Shown: positions 8,316 to 16,970 of the stretch, piece by piece
Layout of the letters: the number at the start of each line of letters is the position of its first letter
Position numbering within the stretch: position 1 is the stretch's first letter
Sequence record: DRR378314_226
Length of the DNA: 32,668 bases
Direction: 5' to 3' (one strand)
Translations under genes and position numbers: made by a program
Notes under the pieces: model-generated
Databases searched by the model: none
What the model was told of the DNA's origin: nothing
Seen by the model: the letters and a program-made list of their open reading frames with translations, nothing else

Positions 8316-10799
8316 ATGGAATCATTAATGAACAAGACAAAGAACAAATTCACCTTTAAAATAATGTTCAGCTATCTAATGCTTGGGATATTGACCCTGG
8401 TAGTAGCCTATTTTATATTTTCAGAAATTAAGGTATTTGTATCTACAGACACAGCAACGGAAAACGATGCCAAATTACTAAAAACAGGCTCCCTATTAAC
8501 AGAACTATATGAGGCGGAAAGTCTTTCCAAACTGGCACTCCAAAAAAAGACCCCAAAAAGCTTTACGGCCTATGCCCAAAAGATAGATTCCATTTTTATC
8601 ACGATAGACTCCCTTAAACTTCTTACAGTTAATGACTACCAAAAGGAGATGTTGGATAGTGTGCAGGGGCTTCTTAAAAAAAAGGTATTCAACAGTAATG
8701 AATTGCTGCGCTTAAAAAGAAAAAGCGAAACCAACAATTCTATAGACAATGCCCTCAAGGAATTTAGCAAAATTGAAGAGTCTCTTGGAAAAATTACTCC
8801 GGAAAGCCTAAATCCCAATTATTCGGACTTACCTCCTGATGCTCAGAATACCTTAAAAAAATGGGCAGAATATCTAAGTGAAAACGTCCCACAAGACACC
8901 AGTAACATTCCTGTTGCCCAACGGGTAGATTCTGTTTTAACGGTTTCCAAATCGCTTTTGGCAGAGGCCAAACAGAGCAATACCAAGGCCTTGCGTTCGG
9001 TAGCACAGAAAGAATTGCAATTAAGCAGGGCCGATCTGGAAATTTCACAGCAGTTGCGCAGTATTATTTCGGCCTTTGAACAGGAGGTAATTACAAAATC
9101 CTACAACGACAACCTAAAAAAACAAACCGCCCTAAAAAGAAGCCTGCGTGTGGCCGGTTTTGCCAGCTTGCTGGGTATAGCTATTGTGGGACTCTTCACT
9201 TTCCTAATTACCAAAGATTATTGGAAGGTACAATTGTATAGGCAGCAACTGGAGAAAGAAAAGAAATTTTCCGAATCCCTTTTAAGAAGTCGGGAACAAT
9301 TAATTTCTACGGTTAGCCATGACCTGCGAACACCATTGAATACCATAACAGGTTATTCCGAATTAATGGAAAATACCGGGCTTTCCGGCAAACAGGTGTC
9401 CTATTTAAAGAATGTAAAATCCGCTTCCAAATATGTGGATAGTCTAGTAAACGATCTATTGGATTTTTCCAAATTGGAGGCAGGAAAAATAAAAATAGAC
9501 CAGACAGCATTTATACTTTCCGACCTTATCAGGGAAACTGCCGAAAACCTCAAGGAAATACATTTGAAGAAACCCATAGAACTCCAGGTAATAATCGACA
9601 GGCAATTGGATAAGCCCGTTTTGGGAGATCCATTTAGGATAAGACAAATTTTGACCAACCTAATCGGCAATGCCTATAAATTTACCAATGAAGGTTTCAT
9701 AAAGGTTGAGGCCAAGGTACTAAACGAAGCGAACGGAAACTACCAAACCTTAATTCAGGTCACTGATACTGGCATAGGGATTAAAAAAGAAAAACAAGAA
9801 CACATTTTTAAAGAGTTTACCCAGGCAGAGGACCATACGGATAAAAAATATGGCGGTTATGGTCTAGGTCTTACTATTTCCAAGAAACTCACCGAACTGT
9901 TGGGTGGAGAAATTAGCCTCCATAGCGAGGAAAATAAAGGAAGTACATTTTCGGTTGAAATTCCTCTCGAGATATCAAAAAAACCTTTGAACTCCCCTAA
10001 GAAAATGGAAATCAGCCCAAAAGTGGAGTTGTCCCTTCTTATCATTGATGATGACCCTGCCATGCTAAAACTGCTCAAGGAAGTCTGTCAACATTTGGGA
10101 CTCGCTGCCCATACCTACAATAGTTTTGATGATGTTACTAGAATAGGGACACTTAATTACAACATGGTTTTGACCGATATACAAATGCCCAATATAACTG
10201 GTTTTGAAGTATTGGGCAAACTGCAAAACGGCACCTATTCGCATTATGCCGGGCAACCCATAGTAGCCATGACGGGGCGGAAGGATCTAAAAAGGAAGCA
10301 GTATATTGAAGCAGGTTTTTCAGATATCCTTCAAAAACCCTTTACCAAAGATATGTTCTTGGAAGTATTGAGCAACTTGTTCCCCCAAGCAGTTCGTAAA
10401 AAAGCTGAAAATACAGAAAAACCTAATATCGCCTCTGGTTCAAACTTATTCCACTTGGGGGTTATTTCCTCTTTTTTGGGAGATGATTATGAAGGCATAG
10501 CCGAAGTTTTGCGGACCTTTATTACCGATACCAAAACCAACATGGAAAAACTGAAAGTGGCGGTAGATGATATGGATATTAAGACGGTGAATGTTGTTTC
10601 ACATCGAATGCTCCCCATGTTCAGACAATTAAACAGTAAGGAGATAGTTCCAATATTAGAGCAATTGGAGATTTTGGAAATTGGCCAATGGGAACCTAAG
10701 GTCTTGAAACAAACCTACAGGGACATTCAGAATAAGTCCACCGTTTTGATCCTGGCCATTAAATCATATTTGGCTACAAGTCCAAATTATAGTGATTAA
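8316..10799 (+). CDS. Hybrid sensor histidine kinase (2 TM, periplasmic sensor, HisKA, HATPase, REC, Hpt-like)
   Basis: H-box VSHDLRTPL, N-box QILTNLIGNAYKFT, G-boxes DTGIGI and GYGLGLTI, receiver IIDDD...TDIQMP...KPF, C-terminal SHRMLPMF Hpt-like His. Confidence 0.93.
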   Translation: MESLMNKTKNKFTFKIMFSYLMLGILTLVVAYFIFSEIKVFVSTDTATENDAKLLKTGSLLTELYEAESLSKLALQKKTPKSFTAYAQKIDSIFITIDSLKLLTVNDYQKEMLDSVQGLLKKKVFNSNELLRLKRKSETNNSIDNALKEFSKIEESLGKITPESLNPNYSDLPPDAQNTLKKWAEYLSENVPQDTSNIPVAQRVDSVLTVSKSLLAEAKQSNTKALRSVAQKELQLSRADLEISQQLRSIISAFEQEVITKSYNDNLKKQTALKRSLRVAGFASLLGIAIVGLFTFLITKDYWKVQLYRQQLEKEKKFSESLLRSREQLISTVSHDLRTPLNTITGYSELMENTGLSGKQVSYLKNVKSASKYVDSLVNDLLDFSKLEAGKIKIDQTAFILSDLIRETAENLKEIHLKKPIELQVIIDRQLDKPVLGDPFRIRQILTNLIGNAYKFTNEGFIKVEAKVLNEANGNYQTLIQVTDTGIGIKKEKQEHIFKEFTQAEDHTDKKYGGYGLGLTISKKLTELLGGEISLHSEENKGSTFSVEIPLEISKKPLNSPKKMEISPKVELSLLIIDDDPAMLKLLKEVCQHLGLAAHTYNSFDDVTRIGTLNYNMVLTDIQMPNITGFEVLGKLQNGTYSHYAGQPIVAMTGRKDLKRKQYIEAGFSDILQKPFTKDMFLEVLSNLFPQAVRKKAENTEKPNIASGSNLFHLGVISSFLGDDYEGIAEVLRTFITDTKTNMEKLKVAVDDMDIKTVNVVSHRMLPMFRQLNSKEIVPILEQLEILEIGQWEPKVLKQTYRDIQNKSTVLILAIKSYLATSPNYSD

Positions 10800-12132
10800 T
10801 TTTGTTGTATAGCGTTTTCCTAGTAATCTGAAGGAGTTTGGCCGCTTTGGATTTATTAAAATTTGATTGTTTCAAGGCCTTTACTATTTGTTCCTTCTCA
10901 TAATCGGCCTTGGAAAAGTTATCGACTTTAGCATTGCTTTCCTTACTCTTATATACTTCTTTGGGCAAGGCAGCTTTCTCTACCATATCCCCACTGGTCA
11001 ACAGAACCGCCCTTTTTATAACATTCTGCAATTCACGTAGATTTCCGGGCCAATGATATTGCTTAAATATATCCTTTACATCCTCCGAAAAACCTTGCAC
11101 TACTTTTCCCAAGGATCGGTTGGCCTTTTTCAAAAAGAAATCAGCGAAAAGTGGTAGGTCTTCAAAGCGTTCCTCCAAGGACGGGATTTCTACAGAAAAT
11201 TCGTTGATCCTATGAAAAAGATCTTCCCTAAAACTACCGTTTTCAACAGCCTCTGTTAGGTCTTCGTTCGTGGCCGTTACAATTCGGATATCTACCTCTA
11301 TCTCCTTGTTACTACCAACTCTTTTAATTTTTCTTTCCTGTAGGGCCCTTAACAACTGTATCTGGTTTTCATAGGAAAGGTTCCCTATTTCGTCCAAAAA
11401 TAAGGTACCCCCATTGGCCGCCTCAAAATGTCCCTTTTTATCCTCCACTGCTCCAGTAAAACTTCCTTTAACATGCCCAAAAAATTCACTCGTAGCAATT
11501 TCTTTGGGAATGGCACCGCAATCTACGGCCACAAAATTGTGTTCATTGCGCTTACTATTATCGTGTATCGCCCTTGCAGTTACCTCCTTTCCTGTCCCAC
11601 TTTCCCCTGTAATTAAAACGGACATGTCCGTAGGGGCCACCAGCTTTATGTACTCGTGCAATTTTTTGGAAGCCTCACTTATTCCAATAACAACCCTATC
11701 GTCCTGGGGATCAACTACCAAATTTTCGCTTTTATGGCTATCCTTTGGCGCACTATCCAATTGCCTCTCGGTCTCTTGGTTTAAGGCGCTTTTAATCTGC
11801 ATTAGAATTTCCTCTGGAGTAAATGGTTTGGAGATGTAGTCGTAGGCACCCTTTTTCATGGCCTCAACGGCAGACCCAACCTCGGCATAACCGGTCATAA
11901 CAATAACCTGTGTCTTTGGATTTACCTCCTTGATATCGGATAAAAGTTGAAGCCCATCATAATTGGGAAGTCGCAAATCTGTTAAAACTAGATCATAGGT
12001 GCTTGCCTTGAATTTGGTCTTGGCATCCTGGGCAGTAAAACTTTCGTCGACATCGTAACCGTTTCTAATCAAAAACTTTTGAAGCATTTGACAAAAAGCG
12101 GCGTCATCTTCAATGATAAGGAGTTTGGGCAT
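10774..12132 (-). CDS. Sigma54-dependent (NtrC-family) response regulator
   Basis: REC (IEDD...TDLRLP), Walker A GESGTGKE, GSFTGA loop, LFLDEIG, WPGNLRELQN, Fis-type HTH NKSKAAKLLQITRKTLYNKI. Confidence 0.96.
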   Translation of the reverse strand: MPKLLIIEDDAAFCQMLQKFLIRNGYDVDESFTAQDAKTKFKASTYDLVLTDLRLPNYDGLQLLSDIKEVNPKTQVIVMTGYAEVGSAVEAMKKGAYDYISKPFTPEEILMQIKSALNQETERQLDSAPKDSHKSENLVVDPQDDRVVIGISEASKKLHEYIKLVAPTDMSVLITGESGTGKEVTARAIHDNSKRNEHNFVAVDCGAIPKEIATSEFFGHVKGSFTGAVEDKKGHFEAANGGTLFLDEIGNLSYENQIQLLRALQERKIKRVGSNKEIEVDIRIVTATNEDLTEAVENGSFREDLFHRINEFSVEIPSLEERFEDLPLFADFFLKKANRSLGKVVQGFSEDVKDIFKQYHWPGNLRELQNVIKRAVLLTSGDMVEKAALPKEVYKSKESNAKVDNFSKADYEKEQIVKALKQSNFNKSKAAKLLQITRKTLYNKINHYNLDL

Positions 12133-12963: not shown

Positions 12964-13266
12964 CTATCTTTCTATCCAATCCCCATCCTTATCGGCATAT
13001 ATGGTACCGCTATTGCCTTCCTTCAAAATTATATCCAACCTGAATTGTTGGAAATTGTTAACATAGGCCTTATTGATAACCGCAGAAGGATAATAGGTGT
13101 CTATTGCCTTGGTCACTGCTTCGGGCAATTCTGCAGCACCTATTTCGGAGAATTTATCTTGAGCAATGCTCATTTCCGTAACCGCCCCTGTTGCTGCTTT
13201 GTTCTCTTGAGCACAGGCGGTTAAACTTGTTATTGATAATGCAATTCCAAAAAATAGCTTTCTCAT
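12964..13266 (-). CDS. Small secreted PepSY-like/DUF2874-like protein, paralogue 2 (100 aa)
   Basis: Start MRKLFF; LPEAVTKAIDTYYPSAVINKAY...IYADKDGDWI; a Cys in LTAC might form a lipobox. Confidence 0.8.
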   Translation of the reverse strand: MRKLFFGIALSITSLTACAQENKAATGAVTEMSIAQDKFSEIGAAELPEAVTKAIDTYYPSAVINKAYVNNFQQFRLDIILKEGNSGTIYADKDGDWIER

Positions 13267-13299
13267 GATTCTAATTTTAATAATTATTACCATTACCAA

Positions 13300-13622: not shown

Positions 13623-13934
13623 TTACATATCTATCCAGTTGCCTGAAGCATCGGCATATAATTCGGAATTGGTTCCATCTGAAAAAGTAACCTCCAACTT
13701 ATATTCAGCCTCTTCATTTACATATGCTTTGTTTATTACGGCTCCGGCATGATCCTTCTCCAAAGCCTTTGTAATTGTGTCGGGCAATTGATCAAGATCT
13801 ATTTCAGTAAATTCTTGAGCAATAATTACTTCCATAATTCCATCGTGAAATATTGGAGGTGACGCCAAAACTGGACCTAAACTTCCCATTGCCATCGCTG
13901 TGGCAAAAACCAAGCTTTTCATATCATTTTTCAT
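13623..13934 (-). CDS. Small secreted PepSY-like/DUF2874-like protein, paralogue 3 (~100 aa)
   Basis: Start MKNDMKSLVF (alternative ATG at 13922); LPDTITKAL...AVINKAY...YKLEV...LYADASGNWI. Confidence 0.8.
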   Translation of the reverse strand: MKNDMKSLVFATAMAMGSLGPVLASPPIFHDGIMEVIIAQEFTEIDLDQLPDTITKALEKDHAGAVINKAYVNEEAEYKLEVTFSDGTNSELYADASGNWIDM

Positions 13935-13982
13935 ATCTCTAGTGTTTTGTGTGAATACTATTTGTTTCTCACAGCAGATAGA

Positions 13983-13998
13983 AGGAAAATTGTGCCAA
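13983..13998 (-). promoter_or_regulatory. Sigma54-like promoter of paralogue 3
   Basis: TTGGCACAATTTTCCT: canonical -24 TGGCAC, non-canonical -12. Confidence 0.5.
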
Positions 13999-14072
13999 CA
14001 ATCAAATTTCAATAATTAAATTTACACCACATTGACAATCAGTTATTTATGCAAAATCTATTATTTATGGGG

Positions 14073-14187: not shown

Positions 14188-15726
14188 CTATTTTACCTGA
14201 TGAGCAGGTTTTAATAGGTCGTTGACCGTTTTTACAGGATTGAAGGTCACCAAGGGAACTTCAACAAAAATAGTATTCCAAAAGGCCATGGCACCGTTCC
14301 ATAGACCTGGCAGCTCCAGAGCTTTTAGATCTTTTCCTTCTTTTGTTTTTTGGGTGATAAAACCTTGTTTGGCATCTACATAATTGAGCAAATTAAATTT
14401 CTCTCCCTTATAATTTCTTACCCCGCAGACCAAATCTACCGGGTTAAAGTGGGTAGAGTTTTTTAAGATATCGACCTGTGCCGCATTATCCATATCTACT
14501 TGTGCAGATTCTATAATTTGAAGTGAAATATGACCGTGGGCATCCCTTATCCAAAACGGACCGCCTCCAGGTTCGCCTTCATTCTTGACCATTCCACAAA
14601 TACGAATGGGACGGTTTATCTTATCCTTTAAAATTTCTATTTGTTGCCCTATACTAAAACCCCCGAATTTATCTGAGAATCGGACATTTAAATCCTTTTC
14701 CAAAAACGATTTTATAGTTTCCAATAATTCAGAAGTTAAATTATCCCCGTCCAATAGCTTGGCGTATTCAAACGCCTTGCTTTGTAATTCCAACAACAGT
14801 CCGGCCAATATCTTTTTGCTTTTGGCAACGTCGTCAGAAAATCTTGGAACCACCACATTATCAATATTCTTTATAAAAATAATGTCCGCATCCTGCTCGT
14901 TCAGGTTCTCTATCAAGGAACCGTGACCAGCTGGCCTGAACAACAGGGAGCCATCCGAATTTCTGAAAGGTTTGTTGTCCAAAGTTACAGCGATAGTATC
15001 CGTAGAAGGCTTCTGAAAGGAATAGTTAACCGTAAAGGAGGTTTTAGCATCCTTTGCCACACGCTCCCCGGCAGTCTTAAATTCTTTGTTGAACATTTCA
15101 CCATGCTGCTCAGAAATGGTAAAATGTAGATTTGCCTCGTTATTCACCTGGGCGTAGGCAATAGCCTCCTTTAAATGTTCCTCGAAAGGTGTGGCGGTGT
15201 GCTTGCCATAGTCATGAAAGGGCAAAAGGCCTTTTGGGTAAAATCCGAAATCCAAGCCTTCAGGCAATAACATCTCCTTTACAAAAAGGTACTTTTCCTC
15301 ATCCTGGGAGCTTGTCTTACCAGCTATCCTTTTTTGAATAAGGTCATAAAAGGCAAATTTTTTATACCCTTCAAAGAAGGCCTTCACATCCTTATCCTTG
15401 GTTCTGTCCAAATAGGCCTCGAATTTTTCGGCTTTGGGATCATAGGTATCCAAAAAATTGAACATTGCCTTGAACATTCGGGATGCAGCACCGGAAGCCG
15501 GTACAAATTTCAGAAGTGAAATTTTCTTCTTTGCATCCTCAAATTTTTTAATAAGCCCTTGCTCCTCAGCCTCGGAAAATTTGGAAATGCCATCGGATAC
15601 TACCGCGGCCTTTTCCAATCTCACAAAAGGAATACCCTCCTTAAATGTCTCAATTTGACCAAGAACTTTTTCTTTAGAAATACCCTTCTTTTCTAATTGT
15701 TTTTTGTCTGCTTCCGTTAATTCCAT
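14188..15726 (-). CDS. DUF4301 family protein (putative nucleotidyltransferase fold)
   Basis: KFVPASGAASRMFK, RPAGHG, IKNIDN, GEPGGGPFW, THFNPVDLVCG, LELPGLWNGAMA, FNPVKTVNDLL. Confidence 0.88.
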   Translation of the reverse strand: MELTEADKKQLEKKGISKEKVLGQIETFKEGIPFVRLEKAAVVSDGISKFSEAEEQGLIKKFEDAKKKISLLKFVPASGAASRMFKAMFNFLDTYDPKAEKFEAYLDRTKDKDVKAFFEGYKKFAFYDLIQKRIAGKTSSQDEEKYLFVKEMLLPEGLDFGFYPKGLLPFHDYGKHTATPFEEHLKEAIAYAQVNNEANLHFTISEQHGEMFNKEFKTAGERVAKDAKTSFTVNYSFQKPSTDTIAVTLDNKPFRNSDGSLLFRPAGHGSLIENLNEQDADIIFIKNIDNVVVPRFSDDVAKSKKILAGLLLELQSKAFEYAKLLDGDNLTSELLETIKSFLEKDLNVRFSDKFGGFSIGQQIEILKDKINRPIRICGMVKNEGEPGGGPFWIRDAHGHISLQIIESAQVDMDNAAQVDILKNSTHFNPVDLVCGVRNYKGEKFNLLNYVDAKQGFITQKTKEGKDLKALELPGLWNGAMAFWNTIFVEVPLVTFNPVKTVNDLLKPAHQVK

Positions 15727-16289
15727 TATTTTCTCAATAGTTGGTTAATGTAGTTCTGGGCCGTTATCAGCCTTGTTTTTTTATCACCCTTTAAGATAAT
15801 AAAATTCCTGTTATATTTTTCCAAAGTATCCTTGAAATAAAGAAACATTCGTTCACGGTCATTTGGTTTATCCCTTAGGTCATCCTTTTCCCACGGAATG
15901 TCTATATAGGTCAGAAAATAGATATCGTAAGTGTTCTGCAATGCGTAAGTCTCCAAAACTGGATCACAATATCCCAAATAGTAGGCTTCGGAATAAACTT
16001 TGGTCTCCAAAAGATCGGTATCGCATATTAAGACTTCATTAGCCTTCTTGGTCAGGGAATTTTCCAATTTGATCTGTCCCTCAGCTATGGGCAATAAATC
16101 TTTTGGCTCACAGGTTTTCCTTTCTTTATCCCATTTGTCCTGAAGGTATTCACGTGCATATTCCGGTACCCAAACGGTATTGTAATGCTTGGCCAAATCT
16201 TGGGACAAGGTTGTCTTTCCCGTAGATTCCGGTCCAAATAACACTACTTTAATAATACTTGAGGGCTCTTGTTTAAACTTTTCTTCCAT
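15726..16289 (-). CDS. NadR-like stand-alone P-loop kinase (ribosylnicotinamide kinase-like, AAA_28)
   Basis: GPESTGKTT, VPEYAREY, ICDTD, PWEKDDLRD; overlaps pnuC by 46 bp and shares TAATG with DUF4301. Confidence 0.88.
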   Translation of the reverse strand: MEEKFKQEPSSIIKVVLFGPESTGKTTLSQDLAKHYNTVWVPEYAREYLQDKWDKERKTCEPKDLLPIAEGQIKLENSLTKKANEVLICDTDLLETKVYSEAYYLGYCDPVLETYALQNTYDIYFLTYIDIPWEKDDLRDKPNDRERMFLYFKDTLEKYNRNFIILKGDKKTRLITAQNYINQLLRK

Positions 16290-16882
16290 GCAAGGTATCC
16301 GAAAATGGCAATAATAGTGAACAATAAATATTGCAGAGATGTAAATATAAGTCCTTTATAAAGATATAATGGAACCGATATTACATCACCGATAATCCAA
16401 TATACCCAATTTTCAAGTTTTTTCTTGGCCATGAGCCACATTCCCACAAAGAATACGGCCGTTGTAAAGGTGTCTATATAAGCTGTCCAACTATCCAACT
16501 TATCAAATACCACGTATACAAAAACAACAAATAAAATAGTAGCAACAAATAAAAAAACAGTCCATTTTTTCTCTTTGGGGGTCGTTGTAGTTATTGGAAT
16601 AAAATGGGTCTCATCTACCTTTCTAGTCCATATATACCATCCGTAGACACTCATGGCGAAGTAATAGGCATTGATCAGCATATCTCCCAATAACCCAAAA
16701 ACAAAAAGGATATATACAAACAGCCCCGTACTAAGGATTCCTGTAGGGAAAACCAATATATTTTCCCTCATGGAGTACCAAACACTTAAAAATCCGAAAA
16801 ACACCCCTACCATTTCCAAAATTATCAAATGGGTAGGAGTATCTTGGTACTGGGCAAAAATCCATTCAAAAATGGGGCTCAT
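16244..16882 (-). CDS. pnuC: PnuC-family vitamin/nucleoside transporter
   Basis: About 7 hydrophobic segments; YGWYIW, DTFTT, MAKKKLENWVYWIIGD. Confidence 0.9.
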   Translation of the reverse strand: MSPIFEWIFAQYQDTPTHLIILEMVGVFFGFLSVWYSMRENILVFPTGILSTGLFVYILFVFGLLGDMLINAYYFAMSVYGWYIWTRKVDETHFIPITTTTPKEKKWTVFLFVATILFVVFVYVVFDKLDSWTAYIDTFTTAVFFVGMWLMAKKKLENWVYWIIGDVISVPLYLYKGLIFTSLQYLLFTIIAIFGYLAWKKSLNKSPQVLLK

Positions 16883-16970
16883 AGTTACTCCGGTCAGATT
16901 TTAGAATTTACATTTTTATCAAACCACTTTCCAACAATCCCAATGAAGATTTGTTTCCACATTCAAACCT
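16866..16970 (-). pseudogene. Remnant of a small gene (probable YkoF/thiamine-binding-protein family) upstream of pnuC
   Basis: Minus frame reads ...LGLLESGLIKM*ILKSDRSNYEPHF*, with an in-frame TAA at 16908-16910 and a stop overlapping the pnuC start; it resembles the KIVKSDRSDYEPHF ending I recall from intact flavobacterial genes at this position. Confidence 0.6.

Follow-up and report, generated by a model that had tools for sequence, protein, structure and literature searches.

Among the described systems that come close to the locus treated here are the NadR pathway, in which an NMN (nicotinamide mononucleotide) adenylyltransferase and a ribosylnicotinamide kinase are found (as given in the accessible portions of PMC2330246 and PMC7221760), and the Pnu channels, which according to the accessible part of PMC5749112 generally go together with trapping kinases. 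The locus lies in sequence record DRR378314_226, a stretch of 32,668 nucleotides that was analysed as a whole and is called the window below. Between its positions 14,188 and 16,882 there are three genes, which encode a PnuC-type channel, a stand-alone NadR-type kinase and a protein of the DUF4301 family (PF14134). The closest homologues carry Arenibacter names, which places the source of the DNA close to Arenibacter within the Flavobacteriaceae; the DUF4301 protein of A. troitsensis (L029) is 96% identical to that of the window. In the open-access full-text literature searched, the name DUF4301 occurs in one paper, no function is assigned to it, and the accession PF14134 is not mentioned. The predicted structure confirms that DUF4301 has a GT-A-like nucleotidyltransferase fold and forms a separate, distant branch within the UDPGP superfamily (eukaryote-type UGPase, UAP and USP), and so makes an assayable enzyme of a protein that had no assigned function before.

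The AlphaFold2 model of DUF4301, which was built on a 52-sequence alignment, has a pLDDT (predicted local distance difference test) score of 94.3 and a pTM (predicted template modelling) score of 0.92. Every match listed by Foldseek is a eukaryote-type UGPase, UAP or USP (expectation values (E) 4e-11 to 3e-9, probability 1.00, 10–14% identity), and VIA-align superposes the model on members of the same three groups with Z 19–21.5 over 325–348 residues at a root mean square deviation of 3.2–3.5 Å; GlmU-type transferases score lower (Z 17, 224–228 residues). The parts that DUF4301 shares with UGPase (2i5k, 3r2w, 2icy), UAP/AGX (1jv1, 2yqh) and USP (3oh1) are an N-terminal helical part and the central Rossmann-like nucleotidyltransferase core. 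Only the comparison of folds found these relatives in the PDB, where a search with the DUF4301 protein and with the 52-sequence profile returned no chain at E ≤ 10; among ESM Atlas look-alikes, a search for named clusters without PF14134 gave no usable match.

The amino acid sequence points the same way. The DUF4301 protein matches PF14134 from end to end with 731 bits (cut-off 27; residues 4–510 correspond to profile positions 1–507), a family that comprises 2,899 clusters at 50% identity (E ≤ 0.001) and also has a member in Bacteroides thetaiotaomicron. Its match to PF01704 (UDPGP) is below threshold (19.8 bits where 22 are required, E 3.7e-4) and covers residues 401–506 only; the same model also gives weak matches to DUF4301 genes in G254 and G068, two further genomes. 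By sequence, then, DUF4301 is a remote relative of PF01704 that falls outside that Pfam family as currently drawn. Six motifs stand in the order of the UDPGP catalytic motifs, the lysine of PVK included: ASGAASRM (77–84), PAGHG (265–269), KNIDN (286–290), EPGGG (385–389), HFN (426–428) and FNPVK (495–499). Among 52 aligned family members of 40–75% identity, P76, S78, G79, R83, M84, G267, H268, G269, N287, D289, N290, G387, G388, N428, F495 and K499 are invariant or at least 90% conserved, and conservation of the motifs is far above chance. In one draw of 301 Bacteroidota genomes there is a single full-length canonical UDPGP protein (L113), and hhalign relates DUF4301 to this UGPase at E 8.6e-4, pairing ESAQ, HFN with YFN, and FNPVKTVNDLL with FAPVKTTNDLL. 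The first-pass annotation of this DNA had proposed a likeness of DUF4301 to UDPGP/UAP pyrophosphorylases from the six ordered motifs, and both the motifs and the fold (Foldseek probability 1.00, Z up to 21.5) bear it out. Some family members are irregular: in two genomes of one genus (G114 and G158) the match to the family is split (profile 1–321 and 364–507) within one open frame of 453–460 amino acids (aa), so that part of the middle helical region is absent, and a further genome (G314) has a second DUF4301 copy with an internal TAA.

DUF4301 is thus very probably a UDPGP-fold enzyme that moves a nucleoside monophosphate from a nucleoside triphosphate (NTP) onto a phosphate monoester, with release of pyrophosphate. 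Whether it is, further, an NDP-sugar-type (nucleoside diphosphate sugar) pyrophosphorylase that joins UTP to an acceptor of the sugar-1-phosphate type we regard as evenly poised. In this scheme a riboside-type vitamin, most likely nicotinamide riboside (NR), would diffuse in through PnuC, and the NadR-type kinase would phosphorylate it and so trap it inside the cell. DUF4301 would take an NTP, by analogy UTP, together with a substrate resembling a sugar-1-phosphate and make from them an NDP-sugar, with pyrophosphate as the other product; the chemistry would depend on the loop arginine R83, on the PVK lysine K499 and on the motifs GHG and NIDN. We infer here the type of reaction, UTP as the nucleotide and a sugar phosphate as the acceptor. 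The sugar-1-phosphate proposal is put forward because the motifs are closest to those of UGPase, because the context of DUF4301 outside the Flavobacteriaceae leans that way, and because the enzyme is independent of PnuC and the kinase. If DUF4301 makes only a common UDP-sugar, this would be a useful annotation but an ordinary one.

In the window the three genes form a co-directional, translationally coupled string. The open reading frame (ORF) list and the junction sequence agree here with the first-pass annotation: pnuC and the kinase gene overlap by 46 bp (16244–16289), and the kinase stop and the DUF4301 start have one base in common (TAATG; the junction reads gagaaaaTAATGgaatta). The start of the kinase is backed by M1, E2 and Q7, which are invariant in 32 aligned kinases. 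The genes around the string are functionally mixed (phosphopantetheinyl transferase, PcrB-like, MTH1187-like and RF-1-domain genes), so tight packing is a weak sign of a shared pathway. A scan for sigma-70 promoters and terminators gave counts at the level of shuffled sequence, with a consensus that is unsuited to Bacteroidota.

The pnuC product matches PF04973 (E 4.7e-54) and the PnuC model TIGR01528 (113 bits, cut-off 42.45), and its translation contains the WxxW(x)3D/N family motif in the form WVYWIIGD. The role of this motif in Pnu channels is treated in PMC5749112, the accessible part of which also gives the motif for PnuT; therefore the motif does not fix the substrate of the channel. 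The only Pfam match of the kinase is AAA_28 (PF13521; E 4.6e-43, residues 14–173). It covers positions 164–320 of the 325-position NadR model TIGR01526 (103.7 bits), and solved NadR chains match it only through their C-terminal kinase domains (9x6f 172–312, 8x7f 165–333, 1lw7 172–326). It corresponds to the ribosylnicotinamide kinase (RNK) domain of NadR by itself, as the first-pass annotation had read it; no helix-turn-helix (HTH) and no PF01467/HxGH NMN adenylyltransferase (NMNAT) domain were found in its 187 residues. PF01467 matches none of the three window proteins, so that neither DUF4301 nor the other two are HxGH adenylyltransferases of the NadR/NadM/NadD type. The Flavobacteriaceae have two AAA_28 paralogues, and the one linked to DUF4301 is the NadR-like one, with 104–117 bits to TIGR01526 whether it is free, fused or without DUF4301. 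The second has no NCBIfam/NadR match, and phmmer does not pick it up when the window kinase is the query; in the nearest genome (G001) it lies at L109:5664-6230, scores 156 bits to Pfam and abuts a RecQ-like helicase gene, which a formyltransferase gene follows.

The linkage of the three genes was surveyed in 80 named genome loci, which are the best-scoring of 608, a set that is biased towards relatives of the window. A FastTree phylogeny of the DUF4301 domains puts 62 of them in Flavobacteriaceae-type clades and 18 elsewhere (Prevotella, other Bacteroidales, Saprospiraceae, Cytophagales-type and Lentimicrobiaceae; L082, whose ORF was not called, is counted here). Kinase and pnuC stand directly upstream of DUF4301 in 57 of the 80 loci, that is, in 57 of the 62 Flavobacteriaceae-type loci and in none of the 18 others; the 57 include L058, where the match takes in no more than the C-terminal third of the kinase. 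Three loci have pnuC without the kinase (L074, L091 and L101), and 20 have neither gene, among which L093 and L096, with about 255 bp of upstream sequence, are too short for a judgement. Five Flavobacteriaceae-type DUF4301 loci are without the kinase (L064, L069, L074, L091 and L101); in two of these, both from Aquimarina, DUF4301 is kept with pnuC and kinase both gone. Conversely, in three Flavobacteriaceae genomes pnuC and the kinase are retained but DUF4301 is absent from its place after the kinase and before the following gene; the rest of their string (phosphopantetheinyl transferase, PcrB-like, an 86-aa gene, pnuC, kinase and arfB-like) is kept, the 86-aa frame in one of them being below the ORF filter.

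In the 301-genome draw DUF4301 is present in 50 genomes and AAA_28 (at E ≤ 1e-10) in 108; 11 candidates per genome were scored, so that absences are soft. An AAA_28 kinase accompanies DUF4301 in 32 of the 50, none was seen in the other 18, which include every one of the 14 DUF4301-positive genomes that fall outside the class of the window, and DUF4301 is absent from 76 genomes that have the kinase. The co-occurrence tracks lineage, not function. The conserved linkage to pnuC and kinase that the first-pass annotation had named as a check thus holds within the Flavobacteriaceae-type clades and is not seen beyond them, and the three DUF4301-less genomes and the five kinase-less loci count against its reading. 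The core role of DUF4301 is independent of PnuC and the kinase, and the coupling and fusion are an arrangement specific to the Flavobacteriaceae.

The kinase and DUF4301 are joined in frame in 10 of the 80 loci (Flagellimonas, Croceivirga and eight Flavobacterium) and in the protein clusters P0036, P0129, P0184 and P0204, and in genus g18 PF14134 and PF13521 matches lie in one open frame in eight of 11 genomes; at least three changes on the tree are forced. Such a long-lived and repeated fusion is hard to dismiss. It mirrors the NMNAT-RNK architecture of NadR, and suggests that DUF4301 could act on the kinase product itself, joining an NTP to NMN or a related 5'-phosphoriboside to give a dinucleotide, so that it and the kinase together would be a non-homologous analogue of NadR. 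The constant order pnuC, kinase, DUF4301 in 57 of 62 loci, the one-base stop/start overlap in the window, the resemblance of the linked kinase (and not its paralogue) to the NadR kinase, and the sameness in kind of the chemistry (a phosphate monoester attacks the alpha-phosphate of an NTP) all favour this, but other findings speak against it. The three genomes that keep channel and kinase without DUF4301, the DUF4301 genes that stand without the kinase, in none of the 18 outside loci being one found (two of these could not be judged), and the 18 of 50 genomes with no AAA_28 kinase seen (soft, as said) are difficult to fit to it, and the motifs held in common with UGPases include those for binding sugar and uracil.

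Nor is there a step for such an enzyme to fill. NR can reach NAD through deamidation of NMN. Five Flavobacteriaceae genomes were checked, and each of them, whether it has DUF4301 or not, contains genes for CinA/PncC and for NadD-sized CTP_transf_like proteins; therefore there is no NMNAT gap, and the premise of the first-pass annotation, that DUF4301 may be the "missing" nucleotidyltransferase of a salvage pathway, is not supported. On balance we hold transfer to NMN by DUF4301 to be rather unlikely. It is unlikely, too, that DUF4301 was recruited within the Flavobacteriaceae to nucleotidylate the product of the fused kinase, which would be a third, non-homologous solution to the conversion of NMN to a dinucleotide, or else a new riboside dinucleotide route. 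If it were so, NadR and the fused Flavobacterium protein of kinase and DUF4301 would have come to the same design by convergence, and the recurrent fusion does raise the question whether an NR-kinase-type partner marks a new NAD-related or riboside-activating step.

The company that DUF4301 keeps elsewhere leans towards the sugar-1-phosphate acceptor. There are 33 DUF4301 fusion clusters among longer proteins (P0271–P0303); in two the partner is a WecA-like GT4 phosphosugar transferase (P0271 and P0275; TIGR02380 142.6 bits, below the cut-off), and in two the N-terminus is weakly ManA/MPI-like (P0279 and P0300). In L094 a galactokinase (GHMP) gene lies directly upstream of DUF4301, in L097 the gene that directly follows DUF4301 codes for an APH-family kinase, and in L005 DUF4301 has a GT3 glycogen synthase gene as its neighbour. 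Other neighbours are RelA/SpoT in five loci (four Prevotella and one that groups with them on the tree) and LD-carboxypeptidase in two Saprospiraceae loci. GT3 glycogen synthase is present in 14 of the 301 genomes, and nine of these 14 have DUF4301 as opposed to 41 of the 287 without GT3, an enrichment that is loose and shows no displacement pattern. According to the accessible part of PMC7935935, Prevotella bryantii is without glgC and uses a UDP-glucose-dependent synthase.

Several points weigh against UTP and a sugar-1-phosphate as the substrates. The sugar-related neighbours each come from a single locus, and each hint is thin. DUF4301 is also fused to unrelated partners, a PurM-like AIRS domain in five clusters and a response regulator with SpoIIE/PP2C in twenty-three, and so fusions are weak guides in either direction. 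The distribution of other enzymes gives no help: canonical GalU (TIGR01099) is below its cut-off in 300 of the 301 genomes, DUF4301 present or not, GlgC is in 24 of the 50 DUF4301-positive and 118 of the 251 DUF4301-negative genomes, 23 Flavobacteriaceae genomes yielded no GT3 synthase, and there is no phyletic complementarity that fits a simple housekeeping role with sugars. The kinase fusion is present in eight of the nine Flavobacterium loci and takes four changes on the tree, at least three of them forced by well-supported branches; repeated and kept, it argues for a pathway shared with a kinase that makes a 5'-phosphoriboside rather than a sugar-1-phosphate. A 5'-phosphoriboside is the only known type of product of NadR-type kinases, and to our knowledge P-loop kinases of this type do not make sugar-1-phosphates. 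Lastly, UDPGP motif residues have catalytic, uracil-binding and sugar-binding roles, and the suggested specificity for UTP and a sugar draws on those roles and not on a structural alignment at the level of residues; the candidates for the uracil and sugar sites of DUF4301 are Q238, H268, E406, N428, W476 and W483.

A lead came from the nearest genome (G001), which has a GlgA-like gene (262 bits) without GlgC; it was dropped, since GlgC is present in 13 of the 20 DUF4301-positive Flavobacteriaceae genomes. The supply of UDP-glucose in most of the 301 genomes is not explained by GalU, by UDPGP or by DUF4301 (50 of 301), and with GalU over its cut-off in one genome the question is raised of the source of UDP-glucose-type donors in the Bacteroidota. 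Seven genomes (L114–L120) have open frames of 1113–1231 aa with a partial UDPGP-like segment (profile about 160–295); several of these frames have a partial match to GalU some 3 kb away.

Another reading gives DUF4301 a different acceptor. DUF4301 has an invariant block of its own (E471, P473–G478, M480 and W483) and extra helical segments, 325–348 of its 512 residues being alignable, and none of the phyletic patterns agrees with a known sugar-nucleotide role; it might therefore serve some other phosphorylated metabolite, for example ribose-1-phosphate or a riboside phosphate not yet known, with the kinase fusion reflecting that pathway. But nothing positive speaks for any particular substrate, and the context elsewhere leans to sugars, and we consider such a substrate quite unlikely. 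The sugar-1-phosphate reaction remains our preferred reading, at the even weight given above.

One neighbour of pnuC suggests another vitamin. In many Flavobacteriaceae an 86-aa gene directly precedes and overlaps pnuC, and its intact form (L112:3034-3294) matches PF01910 (Thiamine_BP/MTH1187) with 28.1 bits. In the window tblastn with six orthologues of 86–89 aa finds only a relic that corresponds to their residues 59–86 (62–89 for the 89-aa one; 43–61% identity, E 1e-4 to 2e-7), and the MTH1187/Thiamine_BP-like gene has decayed in the window's lineage. The presence of this gene could mean a thiamine module, made up of a PnuT-type channel, a thiamine kinase and a DUF4301 protein that acts on thiamine phosphate. 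The PF01910 match is weak, however (cut-off 24.9), the kinase matches the NadR kinase domain, and a TPP (thiamine pyrophosphate) riboswitch is absent ahead of pnuC both in all 20 related loci and in the window, which has no Rfam match at all. We think a thiamine module highly improbable. The Rfam scan of the 20 loci gave one TPP element, two Flavo-1 small RNAs and one tRNA. The TPP element, in L073 (Algibacter pectinivorans; 10590-10687 on the + strand, 71 bits), is 3 kb downstream of DUF4301, precedes a 619-aa ORF and is unrelated to pnuC.

The positions of all features in the window that are discussed here are collected in the table. The tandem small paralogues have signal-peptide-like N-termini and a common ...YADKDGNWIE-like tail, and related loci contain between one and three of them; a Pfam search with one of the paralogues gave no match. 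The regulator-like gene is also kept downstream of them in related loci, as a gene for 448–473 aa.

Table. Positions in the window of the three-gene string and nearby features
Feature	Position	Strand	Basis or remark
pnuC, Pnu-family facilitator, 212 aa	16244..16882	-	PF04973, TIGR01528
Stand-alone NadR-type ribosylnicotinamide-kinase-like P-loop kinase, 187 aa	15726..16289	-	PF13521
DUF4301, predicted UDPGP-fold nucleotidyltransferase, 512 aa	14188..15726	-	PF14134, AlphaFold2 model, Foldseek, VIA, hhalign
Relic, last 28 codons of 86-aa MTH1187/Thiamine_BP-like gene	16869..16952	-	tblastn
Three tandem paralogous ORFs, 111–129 aa	12284-12646, 12964-13299, 13623-14012	-	just downstream of DUF4301
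452-aa ORF resembling a sigma-54-dependent response regulator	10774-12132	-	by eye: receiver, GESGTGKE Walker, C-terminal HTH

When the locus is set beside known systems, DUF4301 is like the UDPGP enzymes in the order of its motifs (glycine-rich loop, GHG, N-x-D-N, GG, FN, and PVK followed by DLL). It differs in its loop, which is ASGAASRM where UDPGP enzymes have GGxGT(R/S/T)(M/L)G, and in that about 165–185 of its 512 residues are left out of the alignments, a part that probably consists of the helical segments at about 86–153 and 294–370 of the model. It also differs from UGPases proper at the C-terminus: DUF4301 ends 13 residues past K499, the structural alignments end at UGPase residues 374–402 of chains with 455–469 residues, and the UGPase C-terminal domain that follows PVK has no counterpart.

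The PnuT thiamine module of Bacteroides resembles the string in its Pnu-family channel and trapping kinase, but there the pnu operon is under TPP riboswitch control, and its kinase is of a different type. FKP of Bacteroides and the AmgK-MurU pair have a kinase that acts before, or is fused to, an NDP-sugar pyrophosphorylase, an arrangement with which DUF4301 beside the kinases of L094 and L097 may be compared; the kinase fused to DUF4301 is, in contrast, of the P-loop NadR type, and we know of no characterised sugar-salvage pair of kinase and pyrophosphorylase that contains DUF4301. NadR with PnuC differs in that the window kinase is without the HTH and the HxGH NMNAT domain, in that the partner domain DUF4301 is of an unrelated fold and the kinase comes first in the fusion, and in that the linkage of channel, kinase and DUF4301 is confined to one bacterial family. 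The likeness lies in the Pnu channel followed by an RNK-type kinase and, in Flavobacterium, in the fusion of a domain with a predicted nucleotidyltransferase fold to that kinase, as in NadR.

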